Source: a bacterium (lineage in GTDB: Bacteria; Patescibacteriota; Minisyncoccia; UBA6257; JAGOQP01). Taken from it: a stretch of DNA of 64,000 nt. Below are positions 12,757-32,749 of the stretch, piece after piece. Location: the NCBI GenBank assembly GCA_021780615.1, contig JAJXYJ010000022.1, positions 809 through 64,808 of the forward strand, in the 5' to 3' direction. The stretch's first letter is position 1, and each line of letters starts with the position of its first letter. The notes under the pieces were generated by a model, which saw nothing but the letters and a program-made list of their open reading frames with translations, did not search any database and was not told where the DNA came from. The position numbers and the translations under genes are program-made.

Positions 12757-12970
12757 TTATGCTGAGCGACGCATTCCTTTCTGTCATGCTGATCCGCCCA
12801 GGGCGGAGAAGCATCTCCTCCCTATCATAAGACCCCTGCCTGCCGGCAGGCATCTATACTGCCTCATCATGAGATTCTTCACTCCACTTCGTTTCGTTCA
12901 GAATGACAGAAAAAAGAATGACATTCATCATGTCATGCTGAGCCTGTCGAAGCATCTCCTCCCGATAAAT
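12757..12970. repeat. Cluster of short REP/MITE-like repeat units (core gtcatgctgaKC...gaagcatctc) plus 78-bp direct repeat copy 1 (12831-12908)
   Basis: Units of the form gtYatgctga[gt]c...gaagcatctc recur around 12757, 12786, 12941, 13476 and 13626. The 78-bp sequence gacccctgcctgccggcaggcatctatactgcctcatcatgagattcttcactccacttcgtttcgttcagaatgaca recurs at 13360-13437 with one mismatch. Confidence 0.7.
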
Positions 12971-13238
12971 CCTCAAAATGAGGATTTTGTTTTTGTATGA
13001 GAATAATTTTTTTATCCCTTTTCCATCCTTTTATTTTCTTTTCAGCGGCAATAGCTTCTTGCGGAGAAGAAAATATTTCATACCACACCAATTTATGCAC
13101 ATTGTATTTTGCCGTAAATCCTGGAACAAGTTTCTGAGTATGCTCATAGAGCCTGCGTTGAAGGTTGTTTGTTACTCCCGTGTATAAGACGGAGTTATAC
13201 TTGTTGGTAAGTATATACACAAAGTATTCTTTGCGCAT
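12933..13238 (-). CDS. GIY-YIG nuclease family protein (small, UPF0213-like)
   Basis: MRKEYFVYILTNKYNSVLYTGVTNNLQRRLYEHTQ contains the GIY-YIG motif. The C-terminal ...KGWKRDKKIILIQKQNPHFEDL is typical of the family. I chose the third in-frame Met as start. The 3' end is encoded by the repeat units. Confidence 0.65.
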   Translation of the reverse strand: MRKEYFVYILTNKYNSVLYTGVTNNLQRRLYEHTQKLVPGFTAKYNVHKLVWYEIFSSPQEAIAAEKKIKGWKRDKKIILIQKQNPHFEDLSGGDASTGSA

Positions 13239-13295
13239 AGAAATATTCATTTTAGTGTAGCAAAGACTTTGCAAAATACATAGAGAGATTATTGC

Positions 13296-13660
13296 ATGAG
13301 ACCCTTCGCTTCACTCAGGGTGACAGAAAAAAAGATGACAAATCTTTTCGTTATACCGAGACCCCTGCCTGCTGGCAGGCATCTATACTGCCTCATCATG
13401 AGATTCTTCACTCCACTTCGTTTCGTTCAGAATGACAACCCTTTCTGTTATGCTGATCCGCCATTACCACATCGTCATGCTGATCCGCCCAAGGCGGAGA
13501 AGCGTCTCATTCCCCATAACATTAATTCTCGGCATTCATAACTCACCCTAACCCTCTCTTAGCTTAAGAGAGGGGGTCTTTGATGTACGAAATTCCTGGG
13601 ATTTCGTACATCATAACGCTTCCCCGTCATGCTGAGCGGAGCGAAGCATCTCATTCTCCC
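13296..13660. repeat. Second block of the same REP/MITE-like repeats, 78-bp direct repeat copy 2 (13360-13437), and perfect hairpins at 13561-13585 and 13595-13619
   Basis: Near-identical 78-mer. Units gtcatgctgatccgcccaaggcggagaagcgtctc and gtcatgctgagcggagcgaagcatctc. Inverted repeats ccctctctt-agc-ttaag-agagggggt and tgtacgaaat-tcctggg-atttcgtaca. Confidence 0.7.
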
Positions 13661-28037: not shown

Positions 28038-29696
28038 ATGATCACATCGATCATACAAACGTTCTCGCGCAGGGAGCGGGTATGGGCTATTATTGCCCTC
28101 ATTGCGGCATGTATATCAGGCGCCTATATTTTTGTGGCATTCATTAATAAGGTAACGTATCTGGCGCCGGCAACAGGAGGGATATACACCGAAGGGATTG
28201 TCGGACAGGTGGCGTTCGTTAACCCCGTCTTGGCAAGTGATGGTACCCCAGATGAAGACGTGGTATCTCTCACTTTTGCCAACATGCTTGATTTGGCAGA
28301 AAGCATAAAGCCCAGTAATAATTTTCAAACATGGAACGTTCGTCTCAAAGCGGGAGCCACATGGCAAGACGGCACTCCCCTGACCAGCGATGATGTTATT
28401 TTTACCGTACAAACAATAAAAAATCCCGATACCGGATCTCCCCTCGCACACGATTGGCAAAATATTACGCCGGTGTATGTGAGCGCCCGAGAGGTTCAGT
28501 TTCAACTCACCAGCCCCTATGCCCCTTTTGAAAATCTCTTGCGTCAACTCCGCCCTATTCCCAAAAAACTATTTGCCACCATCGCACCGGCAAACATAAA
28601 GCTCTCAGCCTACAACTTGCAACCCATTGGCAGTGGTCCTTTTAAATACAAAGAACTCAGTAAAAAAAGCAACGGATTTATCACGTCTTACACGCTTGTC
28701 CGTAATAACCAGTATCAACATATCGGCCCAAAGCCATACATAGACGGTATTACCATTCACTTCTTTGAAAACGACATTGATTTACTTAATGCATTTAACA
28801 TGGGGATTATTGATGGATTCGGCACCACCAACCCGCTCATAACCGATGGCATCGACATTAATGCCACCATTCACGACATTCCCATGATGAAGTATTACGC
28901 CGTATTCTTTAATCAAAATGCCGATCCCGTTCTTGCCGACAGCGCTGTCCGAGAAGCATTAAATGTTGCCATAGATCGCAACGCACTCATTACTAATGTG
29001 TTTAAAGGGAAGGCAACTCCAGAACAGGGCCCTATCCCCCTCATGGAAAATAGTACATCCACAACATCATCAAGCACTTCTCAACAAAGCCCATCAACAC
29101 AAGCGCAACAAATTCTCACTGCTGACGGATGGACACAGGGAGCCAGTGGATGGCAGAAAACAGGTAAAAATGGCACCCAACAAATTCTCCCGACACTCAC
29201 CGTTCCCAATGTACCCATCCTTACGAATCTCGCTCACGAATTACAGAACCAATGGAAAGCGGCAGGAATATCAATTTCTCTGCAAATTGTTGACCCTGCA
29301 ACACTACAAAGCACTATTATTCAAACGAGGAATTATAGCATGCTCCTCTTTGGCAATGTTCTTCTCCCCGATCCTGATTTGTTTAATTTTTGGGCATCAA
29401 CACAAAGCTACTATCCCGGTCTCAATTTGTCCCTCTACAGCAATACTACTGTTGATAATCTCATTCAATCACTCAAACAAATTCCTTCACCCAGTGATGC
29501 GCGCACCCAGGCATTACAAACCCTCAATAACACCATCACCGCCGACCTTCCCGCATTATTTTTAGTTTCCCCACAATATATCTACGTCACTCGGACCAAT
29601 GTACAGGATATTTCTATCCCTACCATTTCACTCCCCGAAGATCGTTTTAACAACGTCACATCCTGGTACTTACGTACCAGCCGCGTATTTAAATGA
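28038..29696 (+). CDS. ABC transporter substrate-binding protein, family 5 (OppA/DppA-like)
   Basis: 552 aa with an N-terminal membrane anchor. SBP_bac_5-like core (TWNVRLKAGATWQDGTPLTSDDVIFT...). Confidence 0.55.
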   Translation: MITSIIQTFSRRERVWAIIALIAACISGAYIFVAFINKVTYLAPATGGIYTEGIVGQVAFVNPVLASDGTPDEDVVSLTFANMLDLAESIKPSNNFQTWNVRLKAGATWQDGTPLTSDDVIFTVQTIKNPDTGSPLAHDWQNITPVYVSAREVQFQLTSPYAPFENLLRQLRPIPKKLFATIAPANIKLSAYNLQPIGSGPFKYKELSKKSNGFITSYTLVRNNQYQHIGPKPYIDGITIHFFENDIDLLNAFNMGIIDGFGTTNPLITDGIDINATIHDIPMMKYYAVFFNQNADPVLADSAVREALNVAIDRNALITNVFKGKATPEQGPIPLMENSTSTTSSSTSQQSPSTQAQQILTADGWTQGASGWQKTGKNGTQQILPTLTVPNVPILTNLAHELQNQWKAAGISISLQIVDPATLQSTIIQTRNYSMLLFGNVLLPDPDLFNFWASTQSYYPGLNLSLYSNTTVDNLIQSLKQIPSPSDARTQALQTLNNTITADLPALFLVSPQYIYVTRTNVQDISIPTISLPEDRFNNVTSWYLRTSRVFK

Positions 29697-30502
29697 GTAT
29701 AGACACCCTGCTCACCGCACGACTTCATACCCACACCACACTCCCTCTTGCATACCACAAGGGCACTTTACATATACCCCCATCTCTTTCCTATGAATCG
29801 TATCAGGAAAAACGGTACCATACCTGGCATCACTCATTTGAAGCGGACCATCTTGACGGGGATAAGCTCCTCTACTATACTTACCGGACTGTATGCCACA
29901 GGAATCATCGACGTATATTTGCCCAAGGGCACATACACTATGATTTGACGGTACTTGTGGCCACCGCTATCGGAAACGAACCAAATAGAACTGTCGGACA
30001 CCTTCATGGTCTTATAACATCACAGGGAGTGCGCCCTCCTGAACTATACGAAGTCATCAGCGGCAGTGCGCTCTTTATTTTTCAACCAGTACACGAAAAA
30101 AAAATCTATACCCTTCGCGCAAAAACCGGTGACATTATTCCTGTCCCCGGCGATTGGGGACACATTACCGTTAATGCAAGCGCGCGCCGTCCACTTATTA
30201 TCAGCAATCTTTTTTGGACAGACGCACCGGTATCTGATTATAATTTTTTTGAAAACACATCTGGTCCCGCATGGTACCCCCATGGACATGGGTCAAAGAT
30301 TTCTTTTCACAAAAATTATCATCAGAAAAAAATGTATCAGCGCATCTCGCTGGCGCGCCCCACATTGCCCAAAGGCATCCTACGAGGTATCCCGCTCTAC
30401 CGCCAATACCAGCACCACCCCGATGCCTTTTCATTTCTCATACCGACACCCCACCATGATTCATTGCACCTTACAGACTGTTACACCCCCCACCATGCCT
30501 AG
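29693..30502 (+). CDS. His-rich cupin-domain protein, possibly a cupin-type sugar-phosphate isomerase
   Basis: GHLHGL...PPELYEVISGSALFIFQ resembles the cupin motifs G(X)5HXH...E(X)6G. There is a 4-nt overlap with the SBP gene. The function is speculative. Confidence 0.35.
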   Translation: MSIDTLLTARLHTHTTLPLAYHKGTLHIPPSLSYESYQEKRYHTWHHSFEADHLDGDKLLYYTYRTVCHRNHRRIFAQGHIHYDLTVLVATAIGNEPNRTVGHLHGLITSQGVRPPELYEVISGSALFIFQPVHEKKIYTLRAKTGDIIPVPGDWGHITVNASARRPLIISNLFWTDAPVSDYNFFENTSGPAWYPHGHGSKISFHKNYHQKKMYQRISLARPTLPKGILRGIPLYRQYQHHPDAFSFLIPTPHHDSLHLTDCYTPHHA

Positions 30503-30676
30503 GTGGCGAAATTGGTAAACGCGTTCCGATTTTTTGGGGATGTGGTGAAACTGGTAGACACGCAGCGTTCAGAGCGCTGTGACCGTACCGGTCGTGGGAG
30601 TTCAAATCTCCCCATCCCCACCCGACACTTCGGAATGAGCAAGAAGCTCATGGGAGTTCAACTCTCCCTCTAGGCA
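30497..30676 (+). tRNA. Split/interrupted Leu-type (class II) tRNA. The 5' half is at 30497-30528 and the 3' half at 30631-30676, separated by a 102-nt insert that contains a complete tRNA-Leu(CAG).
   Basis: Acceptor GCCTAGG pairs with TCTAGGC followed by A. D-arm GTGGCGAAATTGGTAAACGC. Anticodon-stem halves TTCCG and CGGAA. Long variable arm GAGC-AAGAA-GCTC. T-arm GGGAG-TTCAACT-CTCCC. No intact anticodon loop remains. Confidence 0.4.
30536..30620 (+). tRNA. tRNA-Leu (anticodon CAG)
   Basis: GGGGATG acceptor pairs with CATCCCC+A. D-arm GTGAAACTGGTAGACAC. Anticodon stem CAGCG/CGCTG with loop TTCAGAG. Long variable arm GACCG-TAC-CGGTC. T-arm GGGAG-TTCAAAT-CTCCC. CCA is not encoded. Confidence 0.8.
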
Positions 30677-30815
30677 CATATGTCGTAATACAGATCTCCA
30701 CACTATATGCGCGAGACTGGACCTTACACATCAGCGGCAACGCTATGCGCCGCGCATTCATAAGTAATCACATTATAAAATAAACAGTGTACATAGCGTA
30801 CACGTACAACACAGT

Positions 30816-32612
30816 ATGCAACAAACATCATCGCGCCCTCCGCAGCGCAGGTCACGGTCTCCACGACCAGTTGACACATCACGCGGAACAGAACGGCACC
30901 TGCGGCCAGTGCGCTCTCCACAAGGAGAGGCGTTCACCGAAACCGGCCCCGTACTTAAATTCACTCCGTTAGGAGGATTAGAAGAAATCGGCAGAAATAT
31001 GTCGGTCTTTGAGTATGGAGATGAAATCGTGCTTATCGACATGGGACTCCAATTCCCCGAAGAAGAAACTCCGGGCATTGACTACATTATTCCCAACGTC
31101 GCCAGCCTCGTGCCCAAGAAAAAGAATATCAAGGGAGTTATTATCACCCACGGACACTACGACCACATCGGGGCTATTCCCTACCTTATTTCGCAGTTAG
31201 GCAACGATATCCCCATTTACACAGCAGCGTTTACCAAAGCCATTATTGCCAAGCGCCAAGAAGAATTTGCCACTAACCATGGAAAGCTCAATATTATTAC
31301 CGTGAAGCCAGGTGAGCACATACAAGTATCAAAAAGTTTCCGCGCGGAATTCTTTGATGCCGACCACACTATTCCCGATTCTCTATCCATTATTCTCAAG
31401 ACTCCGGTAGGTAACATGGTATATTGTTCCGATTTAAAAGTGACTCGAGATACCCATGGAGAACCGCATTTTACGGATATCTACAAAAATGTCGGCAAAG
31501 AAGGAATTCACACCTTGTTTTTGGAAAGTACGAACGCCTGGAAACCAGGGAAATCAGTATCGGAAGAAACAGTTATCAATAACCTTGATGAATTCTTCGT
31601 CAACGCAAAAGGACGTATTATCATCGGTTTATTTGCCTCACTCATTACGCGCGTTGTTGATATCTTTCGTATTGCCGAAAAACACAATCGTAAAATATTT
31701 TTGAGCGGATTTTCCCTCAAAAATAATGTGCAAATCGCACAAAACCTCGGCTACCTTAAAGCAAAGAAAGGAGCCATTGTCCCCGTAGAGCAAATCAGCA
31801 AGTACCGCGACGAAGAAATTTTAGTATTGAGCACCGGAGCGCAAGGGGAATCTCGCGCCAGCCTGAATAAAATCGTTACCGGAGAGCATAAAAATATCAG
31901 CATCAAAAAAGGTGATACCATCATCTTTTCATCATCGGTCATTCCCGGAAATGAGCGGCCCATTCAAACATTAAAAGATAACCTCACCCGCCAAGGAGGA
32001 CACGTATATCAAACACAACACATTGATATCCATGCCAGCGGACATGGACCGGCAGAAGATCTCAAACTTGTCACGCAACTCATTCATCCGAAATTCTTTG
32101 TGCCAATTCATGGTATGTATTTTATGCGCGCCGCAAACGCAGACCTCGCTCAAGAAACCGGCATTCCTGAAAAAAATTGCATTCTTGCCGACAACGGACA
32201 GGTAATTAATATCTATCCCGATAAAACGGTACTCTCCAAAGAAACTATTCCTACCTCATACGTGATGGTGGATGGTCTCGGCGTGGGCGATGTAGAAGAA
32301 GTTGTTATTCGTGACCGCGTCGCGCTTTCTCAAGAAGGTATGTTTGTAGTCATTATTACCTTGGATCGTCGCACCGGACAGTTCCTCAAGAATCCTGATA
32401 TTATCTCTCGCGGATTCATCTTCTTAAAAGATAATAGAGAATTTATTGAAGAGGCTCGCAAAAAAATAAAAAGTCTCATTAGCCGCATCCCTCACTTCCA
32501 ATCAGTGGAATCCGACTACATCAAAACACTCATGAAGGATCAGCTGGGACAATTCATCTATCGCAAAACAAAGCGACGTCCGATGATACTGCCAGTTATT
32601 ATAGAAGTGTAA
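30816..32612 (+). CDS. rnj: Ribonuclease J (metallo-beta-lactamase/beta-CASP)
   Basis: VIITHGHYDHIG (HxHxDH), beta-CASP region and C-terminal domain. Length is 598 aa with an Arg-rich N-terminal extension. Confidence 0.75.
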   Translation: MQQTSSRPPQRRSRSPRPVDTSRGTERHLRPVRSPQGEAFTETGPVLKFTPLGGLEEIGRNMSVFEYGDEIVLIDMGLQFPEEETPGIDYIIPNVASLVPKKKNIKGVIITHGHYDHIGAIPYLISQLGNDIPIYTAAFTKAIIAKRQEEFATNHGKLNIITVKPGEHIQVSKSFRAEFFDADHTIPDSLSIILKTPVGNMVYCSDLKVTRDTHGEPHFTDIYKNVGKEGIHTLFLESTNAWKPGKSVSEETVINNLDEFFVNAKGRIIIGLFASLITRVVDIFRIAEKHNRKIFLSGFSLKNNVQIAQNLGYLKAKKGAIVPVEQISKYRDEEILVLSTGAQGESRASLNKIVTGEHKNISIKKGDTIIFSSSVIPGNERPIQTLKDNLTRQGGHVYQTQHIDIHASGHGPAEDLKLVTQLIHPKFFVPIHGMYFMRAANADLAQETGIPEKNCILADNGQVINIYPDKTVLSKETIPTSYVMVDGLGVGDVEEVVIRDRVALSQEGMFVVIITLDRRTGQFLKNPDIISRGFIFLKDNREFIEEARKKIKSLISRIPHFQSVESDYIKTLMKDQLGQFIYRKTKRRPMILPVIIEV

Positions 32613-32749
32613 CCAAGACGCAGACAGATGCGGACACAACGCAGACGAACGCGGAAAATGAAAGTATACACGATTCCCGAAATCCAGAAGGATTTCGGGA
32701 ATCAGACAAGGCCACATAACACCAAAAAATTCTAAGCCCTTATATAAGG

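Follow-up and report, generated by a model that had tools for sequence, protein, structure and literature searches.

A tRNA-Leu gene nested in the anticodon arm of a second tRNA-Leu: one case of a recurrent arrangement in Patescibacteria

A 64-kb stretch of DNA from a Patescibacteria genome (the window, meaning that whole stretch, to which all window coordinates refer) carries a complete gene for tRNA-Leu(CAG) inside the anticodon arm of a second tRNA-Leu, the two halves of which flank it. The inner tRNA is probably the working gene, and the outer one a non-decoding shell that was left when a helix-bounded tRNA copy entered the anticodon arm of a resident gene for the same isoacceptor. This nest is most likely one instance of a process that recurs in Patescibacteria and, judging from the sequences compared, an intermediate in the replacement of one tRNA gene by another. 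The placement of a tRNA in the anticodon arm of another was found repeatedly, in up to three layers and for at least two amino acids, and it represents a new form of disrupted tRNA gene, without description in the literature searched. That search returned no nested tRNA described in bacteria, in agreement with the original prediction for this locus, which knew of no bacterial precedent.

Structure of the nested locus

Over the 64 kb, ARAGORN calls a single tRNA, the inner tRNA-Leu(CAG) of Table 1. It scores 53.2 bits against RF00005, for which the gathering score is 29, every stem is intact, the T loop reads TTCAAAT and the anticodon loop has 7 nt (stem counts and ARAGORN). The inner gene therefore has what is expected of a canonical bacterial tRNA gene, namely a score above the Rfam threshold, a cloverleaf and a 7-nt anticodon loop, and its prediction as a class-II tRNA-Leu(CAG) is confirmed. 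No CCA is encoded.

The insert between the outer halves has 102 nt and consists of the 85 nt of the tRNA and 17 nt of non-tRNA DNA. The intron modes of ARAGORN, on which the original prediction had counted, do not report the outer tRNA in 30400-30760, where a relaxed threshold adds only a spurious antisense call. Rfam does not call the outer halves as a tRNA either; of the outer tRNA, only the variable and T arms are matched in its E-value search, weakly and as tRNA-Sec-like (13.5 bits). Given that the intron mode was silent, the outer tRNA was tested on spliced constructs. Once the insert is shortened to 7 nt, whatever their sequence, ARAGORN finds in the outer halves a full class-II cloverleaf. 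Its acceptor stem has 7 bp, one of them G-T, the D stem 3 bp with G18 and G19, the anticodon stem 5 bp and the T stem 5 bp with the loop TTCAACT; the variable arm is long, and A73 is present. The stem scores are 7/7 for the acceptor, 3/3 for the D and 5/5 for the T stem, and the outer halves do form a Leu-type tRNA devoid of an anticodon loop, as had been claimed. The pairing of the acceptor and anticodon stems, which had been described as perfect, holds, with one G-T pair in the former and with the correction that the latter can be read as 6 bp by adding A30529-T30630. Past this pair, the length of the helix in the window is within chance expectation; the shuffle test for helices is too permissive for short ones, and by that test the 6-7 bp of the window are not significant. 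The 181-nt stretch that holds the nest has a minimum free energy (MFE) of -78.3 kcal/mol (z = -5.5, with 0 of 200 shuffles as good), and this fold holds the outer acceptor, variable and T arms together with the inner acceptor, anticodon, variable and T arms.

What the outer tRNA lacks, with all other cloverleaf features present, is a 7-nt anticodon loop with U33 and an anticodon. The ends of the insert allow eight 7-nt loops, and none of the eight contains a Leu anticodon; they give CAC, TAC, TTC or TTT, carry T at position 37 and have no consistent U33. Without an anticodon the outer tRNA cannot decode, and it is for this reason called a shell here.

Inner and outer tRNA are 65% identical to each other. 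Positions 30648-30668, which include the shell T arm, are a 90% direct repeat of inner positions 30592-30612, and the flanks of the inner tRNA contain no repeat of the flanks of the outer. The leader at 30529-30535 resembles, with a 10-nt gap, the 5' flank of the nest L041 (L numbers denote the loci and genomes compared), a likeness that is weak as evidence. The D arm of the shell contains the sequence GCGAAATTGGTAAACGC.

Table 1. Features of the nested locus and its neighbours in the window
Feature	Position	Strand	Basis or remark
Cupin-type glucose-6-phosphate isomerase open reading frame (ORF), upstream neighbour	29693-30502	+	
Outer (shell) tRNA-Leu, 5' half	30497-30528	+	Sequence, ARAGORN on collapsed insert, stem counts
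Outer acceptor stem, 5' strand GCCTAGG	30497-30503	+	Followed by TG
Outer D arm GCG-AAATTGGTAAA-CGC	30506-30522	+	
Outer G26	30523	+	
Outer anticodon stem, 5' strand TTCCG	30524-30528	+	
Inner leader ATTTTTT	30529-30535	+	Sequence, fold
Inner tRNA-Leu(CAG), complete class II, 85 nt including A73	30536-30620	+	ARAGORN, Rfam RF00005, stem counts
Inner trailer CCCGACACTT	30621-30630	+	Sequence
Outer (shell) tRNA-Leu, 3' half	30631-30676	+	Sequence, ARAGORN on collapsed insert, stem counts
Outer 3' half in order: CGGAA (anticodon stem, 3' strand), T44, variable arm GAGC-AAGAA-GCTC	starts at 30631	+	
Outer T arm GGGAG-TTCAACT-CTCCC	30652-30668	+	
Outer acceptor stem, 3' strand TCTAGGC	30669-30675	+	
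Outer discriminator A (A73)	30676	+	
RNase J, downstream neighbour	30816-32612	+	

The same locus in independent assemblies and in relatives

The identical nest (100%) is found in an ENA MEGAHIT contig besides the NCBI contig of a metagenome-assembled genome (MAG), and a Logan contig spans the junction of the inner 3' end with the outer 3' half with 1 mismatch in 255 nt. Both flanking proteins have identical sequences in an NCBI MAG contig (GCA_027355965.1), in ENA MEGAHIT contigs and in a Logan contig. The presence of the same sequence in independent assemblies shows that the nest is not an assembly artefact. RNase J was used as the marker for synteny and relatedness; its relatives come from MAGs labelled Paceibacterota, Wolfebacteria or Patescibacteria, and the host is a Patescibacteria genome of Paceibacteria/Wolfebacteria-like type.

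The gene order SBP_bac_5 - cupin - tRNA-Leu - RNase J is conserved. All 14 genomes with an RNase J 56-81% identical to that of the window have one uninterrupted tRNA-Leu(CAG) just upstream of it, and the closest relative available, L075 (RNase J 93% identical), likewise has a single tRNA-Leu(CAG), at 693-778, with flanks as in the window. The nesting is not conserved in these relatives; about 15 nests recur elsewhere, several of them at the same locus. An intact tRNA in related genomes was one half of what the original prediction had named as speaking against it; the other half, a recent local duplication, is not borne out. The inner tRNA is 65% identical to the outer and 91% identical overall to the tRNA of L005, a more distant relative, and its flanks are not repeated from those of the outer. 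Among the origins then proposed, a gene disrupted by a duplicated tRNA gene comes closest to the evidence, except that the duplicate is not a recent local one. Outer positions 1-26 match the single tRNA-Leu(CAG) of a nearer relative, L004, at 24 of 26 positions (hand count from the alignment).

The acceptor stem of the L075 tRNA, GCCTGGG/CCTAGGC (positions 1-7 and 66-72), is of the outer type of the window, while its positions 8-65 agree with the inner tRNA in 56 of their 58 nucleotides (body 97% identical). L075 and the inner tRNA also share derived states with respect to L005, namely GGTAGA, TTCAGAG and the variable arm. The L075 tRNA therefore appears to be a chimera of the outer acceptor and the inner body of the window and looks like a collapsed nest, which would mean that the nest predates the window genome. 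The simplest history suggested by these sequences places the nest in the common ancestor of the window genome and L075 and its collapse in L075, which could have occurred by recombination between the directly repeated inner and outer segments.

Recurrence of nesting

Given that a tRNA has at least 70 nt, two Leu-type D arms that are 10-40 nt apart are expected only in nested or partly duplicated genes, and metagenome contigs were scanned for such pairs. With a first pattern, GGTGGYGAAAYTGG...GTGGYGAAAYTGG, the only matches were repeats in viral contigs that code for Gly-Gly-Glu-Thr, and a longer D-arm pattern was used instead. The scan gave 38 metagenome loci, and parsing of these left about 15 distinct true nests, with an outer 3' half that has a T arm, an acceptor complement and A73. 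The layout begins with the outer 5' half and a helix strand, has a full tRNA-Leu (CAG, TAG or CAA) in the middle, and ends with the complementary strand and the rest of the outer tRNA, namely its variable arm, its T arm, its acceptor strand and A73. No nest was found in phage genomes and viral contigs.

At L040, L050, L053, L062/L070, L065 and L069 the SBP - cupin - tRNA - RNase J neighbourhood is present at least in part, with an RNase J 43-56% identical to that of the window, and on the RNase J tree the nests are scattered among single-tRNA lineages. A tRNA-Pro(TGG) nested in a Pro-type shell (L044, 7422-7604, +; connecting helix of 21 bp that prolongs the anticodon stem of the shell, MFE z = -4.7), which came from a search of all loci retrieved, shows that nesting is not specific to leucine. 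Wherever the remnant of the outer loop is readable, inner and outer are the same isoacceptor (CAG in L041, L062 and L065, CAA-like in L073). L040 and the L048 group have only the outer 5' half, and L056 and L074 are plain partial duplications, with an exact tandem inside the gene. The recurrence in many Patescibacteria, the depth of three layers, the tRNA-Pro nest and the chimeric collapse all go beyond what had been predicted.

In L044 (215-330), L051, L060, L071, L074 and L056, a full tRNA comes after a Leu 5' half, and the outer 3' half is missing. These cases may be collapsed nests, slippage products or assembly errors.

Relative age of the layers

The nearest relatives of L053 (RNase J 70-76% identical) have one tRNA each at the conserved position, except L082-L084, where RNase J is preceded by other genes and there is no tRNA. 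L076, whose RNase J is 76% identical to that of L053, has a single tRNA that matches the outer tRNA of L053 in the D arm, in the variable-arm stem and in an identical T arm. In comparison with L076, exactly positions 27-43 are replaced in L053 by TCCCG-helix-inner-helix-CGGGA. The outer tRNA of L069 in turn resembles the resident tRNAs of L079 and L085. These matches indicate that the outer tRNA is the former resident, and that the inner tRNA with its helix is the newcomer.

Three concentric layers are found in L062 (2491-2892, +) and L070, which come from two independent metagenomes and differ by 3 single-nucleotide polymorphisms in 480 nt. In the outermost layer, the acceptor stem, the D arm and the anticodon stem are intact, the variable and T arms are gone, and the interruption falls exactly between A35 and G36 of the loop TTCAGGG. 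Folding of the 402 nt gives three layers, one within the other (z = -5.2). As read from this layering, the invasion is serial.

Spread by homologous recombination, with the outer halves as arms, was considered and is not supported at L053, where the likeness of the outer tRNA to the resident type of the sister lineage, L076, extends as far as positions 26 and 44; transfer between close relatives is possible.

Helices, insert ends and insertion sites

The helix of L041 has about 22 bp with one bulge. Helices are more degraded in the layers that look older, namely the outermost layer of L062 and that of the window, with its 6 bp; the comparison of these sequences suggests that the helices are born with the insertion. 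L069 and the outermost layer of L062 (at 35/36) have the helix part CACCAAAAT in common, and near-variants of it occur in L068 and L072, where they replace the anticodon arm. The insertion sites vary. Positions 27-43 can be replaced, as in L053, L041 has its insert at 26/27, and in the outermost layer of L062 and in L065 the insert lies at 35/36 or beside it. Set against the traits of a miniature inverted-repeat transposable element (conserved terminal inverted repeats, target-site duplication and several copies per genome), the inserts have complementary ends, often YCCCG...CGGGR, and no consistent target-site duplication, and the window has one copy. Clues to a mechanism were sought at the nest, and no integrase, consistent target duplication, ribozyme, bulge-helix-bulge (BHB) motif or phage match was found.

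Two further inserts were observed in nests. L057 (about 12845-13400, +) and L072 (minus strand, about 300-470 nt after the nest start) have GC-rich non-coding inserts of about 150-270 nt, which are flanked by 19-26-nt direct repeats of the 3' end of the shell tRNA and thus have the look of attachment (att) sites. The L072 insert resembles the sequence between the inner tRNA and the outer 3' half of the same nest.

State of the shells

None of the 15 inner tRNAs has a flaw. The outer tRNAs are flawless in 9 of the 15 cases, have one stem mismatch in two, and have an aberrant T loop or arm in four (L041 and L058 carry a mutated T54, L046 has a 45-nt insertion and the arm of L045 is degenerate). 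A substitution in L070 also disrupts the anticodon stem of a shell. The graded decay, together with the losses and collapses, indicates a relaxed constraint on the shells. The two marks of a tRNA pseudogene, which are the loss of the decoding element and a relaxed constraint in homologues, are found for the outer tRNA only, the relaxation being seen in homologous shells. The inner and outer D arms are identical in L039, L050 and L073, with similar or identical T or variable arms. Gene conversion between the layers is visible in such alignments and could keep local hairpins intact without selection.

The 45-nt insertion in the shell T loop of L046, also present in L055, contains the hairpin TCCCGCT-GGA-AGCGGGA, which has the same ends as those that bound the nested tRNAs.

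Proposed course of events and points against it

In the course that is proposed here, a tRNA copy with complementary helix-forming flanks would land in the anticodon arm of a resident of the same isoacceptor, decoding would pass to the new copy, and the resident would turn into a shell. This shell could be partly homogenised by gene conversion from the inner or from paralogous tRNAs, or decay; it could also lose its 3' half, be invaded again, as in the three-layer nests, or recombine with the inner tRNA to give a single, sometimes chimeric tRNA. The nest in the window would be transcribed from upstream, and the RNase P cut would fall at the inner G1 (G30536). The inner 3' end would then be trimmed and CCA added, a step that is needed given that no CCA is encoded, and the shell halves would be by-products of this processing. 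A release of the halves by RNase P/Z had already been proposed for this locus and is expected from processing; no evidence was found for a role of the halves once released.

Several observations weigh against this account. The neutral divergence between the window and L075 is nearly saturated, with 44% identity at four-fold sites of RNase J and 60-62% identity of the intergenic DNA, and yet the shell of the window is flawless, which is unexpected if the nest predates their split. Gene conversion accounts for the local hairpins, but not easily for the 7-bp acceptor stem. The intactness of the outer acceptor stem is itself biased, because the calling of the outer 3' halves required acceptor complementarity. 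The insert is bounded by YCCCG...CGGGR in about 13 of 21 Leu cases, in genomes of 29-62% GC, and apparently younger nests have long perfect helices, with 14-15 uninterrupted bp in L050, L062 and L069. The ends motif and the long helices imply a specific mechanism or function that goes beyond a relic. The shell 5' half and leader of L046 and L047 differ by 1 change in 131 nt while the flanks diverge, and the L048 group has kept its 5' half after the loss of the 3' half, so that selection or recent transfer may act on shell 5' halves and leaders.

Comparison with known systems

Interrupted tRNA genes are classic in Archaea, where a functional RNA can reside inside a tRNA intron, as does the box C/D RNA in the intron of tRNA-Trp. 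In bacteria, interrupted tRNA genes had not been known beyond group I and, rarely, group II introns. As in archaeal disrupted tRNAs, the interruption of the nest lies in or next to the anticodon arm, and as in archaeal split tRNAs, a GC-rich helix beside the halves joins the 5' and 3' parts. The nest differs in its bacterial host, in showing no BHB, in an anticodon that cannot be regained, and in an insert that is a complete tRNA of the same isoacceptor. In the window, the sequence reads as having no 3-nt bulges separated by a 4-bp helix, and no anticodon loop can be rebuilt. Intron-containing, split and permuted tRNA genes are described from Archaea and some eukaryotes (PMC4390854, PMC3978253, PMC4090602).

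Group I introns in the anticodon loops of Patescibacteria tRNAs, including position 35/36, have been reported (Nakagawa et al. 2026, PMC13011429), in a work that makes no mention of nested tRNAs. The phylum and the target region are the same as for the nests, 35/36 or an adjacent position being hit in the outermost layer of L062 and in L065, and the interrupted gene is in both cases missed by standard finders. In contrast to these introns, the nest has an insert of 102 nt with no ribozyme core, no U closing the 5' exon, no terminal G and no splicing product. The boundaries are ...CCG/A and T/CGG, the anticodon is not restored, and the Rfam E-value search of 30440-30740 found no intron family. 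A group I intron has a conserved P3-P8 core and, as a rule, a length above 200 nt.

Integrative elements are known to leave fragments of tRNA genes (attL/attR; PMC9897764). Their scars are similar to the nest in that a partial tRNA stands beside a complete one and that tRNA genes are hot-spots for incoming DNA. In the nest, however, both old halves flank the new gene within 180 nt, there is no integrase, cargo or direct repeat of the att kind, and the new tRNA is complete instead of a restored chimera. The 102-nt insert has no ORF, the only direct repeats are the paralogous T arms, and the neighbours are syntenic housekeeping genes.

The topology of the nest is identical to that of the 'tRNA scaffold' reportedly engineered by Ponchon and Dardel in 2007, in which the RNA to be expressed takes the position of the anticodon loop: a closing helix joins this structured RNA to the anticodon stem, and the acceptor, D and T arms are left intact. 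The scaffold is artificial and its passenger stays attached, whereas the nest is natural and its passenger is a tRNA with an RNase P site of its own. A helix-bounded insertion in a structural RNA gene is also seen in the intervening sequences of bacterial rRNA, which are excised by RNase III without re-ligation, the fragmented rRNA remaining functional; bacteria of the candidate phyla radiation are known for insertions in their rRNA genes. The nest differs in that a tRNA without its anticodon loop cannot decode.

Alternative explanations

The recovery of a second decoding tRNA from the outer halves, with the inner tRNA excised as an intron and the halves joined or acting in trans, has next to no credibility. 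It would profit from the perfect pairing of the halves, from the anticodon-loop introns of Patescibacteria (PMC13011429), those at 35/36 included, and from the inserts at or next to this position in L062 and L065. Nonetheless, none of the eight 7-nt leftovers provides a Leu anticodon, T stands at 37, and in the other nests the residues after the stem have no U33. As an anticodon cannot be reconstructed, the sequence excludes a second tRNA made by splicing, and the proposal of a tRNA serving as an intron fails for the window and likewise for the other nests. The small insert with neither a group I core nor an Rfam intron match, the missing 5'-exon U and terminal G, and junctions in which no BHB geometry can be read (in L062 and L065 a 3 x 7 internal loop with the strands opposite) add to this. 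A one-off accident in the window genome, by local duplication or illegitimate insertion that left a pseudogene, or an assembly chimera, is very improbable, even though the relatives have a single tRNA at this position; the NCBI, ENA and Logan assemblies agree, the architecture is repeated in about 15 other nests, several at the same locus, the inner tRNA is closer to L005 (91%) than to the outer (65%), and the chimera in L075 implies that the nest is older than the window genome. Somewhat more can be said for the scar of a classical integrative element that entered the tRNA gene and later lost its cargo save a tRNA, given that tRNA genes are common integration sites and sources of fragments (PMC9897764), that the inserts of L057 and L072 are flanked by repeats of the shell 3' end, and that L073 and L050 have short direct repeats at their junctions. 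It is nevertheless improbable. The window has neither an integrase nor a direct repeat of the tRNA at both junctions, and its non-tRNA DNA is limited to 17 nt; conservative site-specific recombination would not remove exactly positions 27-43, as between L053 and L076; and phage genomes and viral contigs gave no match. The classical attL/attR model was rejected because the anticodon loop is not duplicated at both junctions, as seen in L062 and L065.

A functional shell deserves more weight, though we consider it unlikely. The outer halves and helix would here be under selection, either as a scaffold for RNase P and 3'-nuclease processing or for folding of the inner pre-tRNA, or as a two-piece, anticodon-less tRNA-like RNA that can be charged with Leu (A73 being kept) and acts outside decoding. 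The flawless state of the window shell despite its large neutral divergence from L075, and of 9 of the 15 shells, is consistent with selection, as are the long and perfect helices whose sequence varies among nests with the pairing kept, the conserved YCCCG/CGGGR ends, and the conservation of 5' half and leader against diverging flanks in L046 and L047. The inner and outer acceptor sequences also differ in nearly every nest (L069 shares the 5' strand GCCGGGG), by which mis-pairing would be limited. On the other hand, the closest relatives have no nest, the nests are sporadic on the RNase J tree, 4 of the 15 have broken T loops or arms, one with the 45-nt insertion in its T loop, L040 and the L048 group have lost their whole 3' halves, no T arm is left in the outermost layer of L062, the L070 substitution breaks a shell anticodon stem, and the helix of the window has just 6 bp.

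A bolder possibility, which we hold only tentatively, is that YCCCG-leader-tRNA-trailer-CGGGR is a protein-less, self-replacing element of a new kind that homes into the anticodon arm of the resident tRNA gene for the same isoacceptor, kills it and becomes indispensable as the source of the replacement; in a variant of this idea, the shell and helix would be a functional anticodon-less tRNA-like RNA. Repeated rounds of homing would then give nests of the Russian-doll kind, collapse would give chimeric tRNAs, and a horizontal turnover of tRNA alleles would be driven across Patescibacteria. Should the insertion be active and sequence-specific, this would be a selfish element of a new class, and should the shell be functional, it would be a tRNA-like RNA of a new class. 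In either event, the engineered tRNA scaffold has a natural counterpart in the nest. The reading that we favour, with a working inner gene and a non-decoding shell, reveals nesting, shell decay and chimeric collapse as a path by which tRNA genes are turned over, and the uneven occurrence of tRNA-Leu(CAG) sequence types across Patescibacteria may be due to it. It also matters for annotation, given that standard finders give the inner gene only and that half-tRNA shells may pass for split genes or att sites.

Surroundings of the nest in the window

Sigma-70-like sites lie upstream of the nest at 30215-30244 and 30306-30333, and a promoter consensus scan found nothing from 30333 to the inner tRNA. 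A promoter within the shell 5' half was considered and rejected, its hexamers, picked by eye, being weak and such that transcription would start inside the inner tRNA. Terminator prediction found none before RNase J. A perfect hairpin of 11 bp, TCCCGAAATCC-AGAA-GGATTTCGGGA at 32675-32700, separates RNase J from the convergent beta-CASP gene and is probably a bidirectional terminator. It has TCCCG/CGGGA ends; hairpins of the type TCCCG...CGGGA are not enriched in the window, with 2 found against 0.94 expected.

The 13-nt direct repeat ACMCCCCACCATG, at 30446-30458 and 30485-30497 with a spacing of 39 nt, encodes TPHH at the His-rich C-terminus of the cupin. Its spacing equals the offset between outer and inner tRNA, but the rest of the units differ; it is a coding repeat, and the agreement was treated as a coincidence instead of as part of the nest. 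In the ENA assembly ERZ27236897 there is a break between the nest and RNase J, where contigs k141_151598 (L022) and k141_612602 (L019) overlap by about 165 nt, and this may reflect strain heterogeneity at the nest locus. The TAG stop codon of the cupin ORF (30500-30502) falls within the outer acceptor stem (GCC-TAG-G), and in L075 the cupin ORF ends 10 nt ahead of the tRNA.

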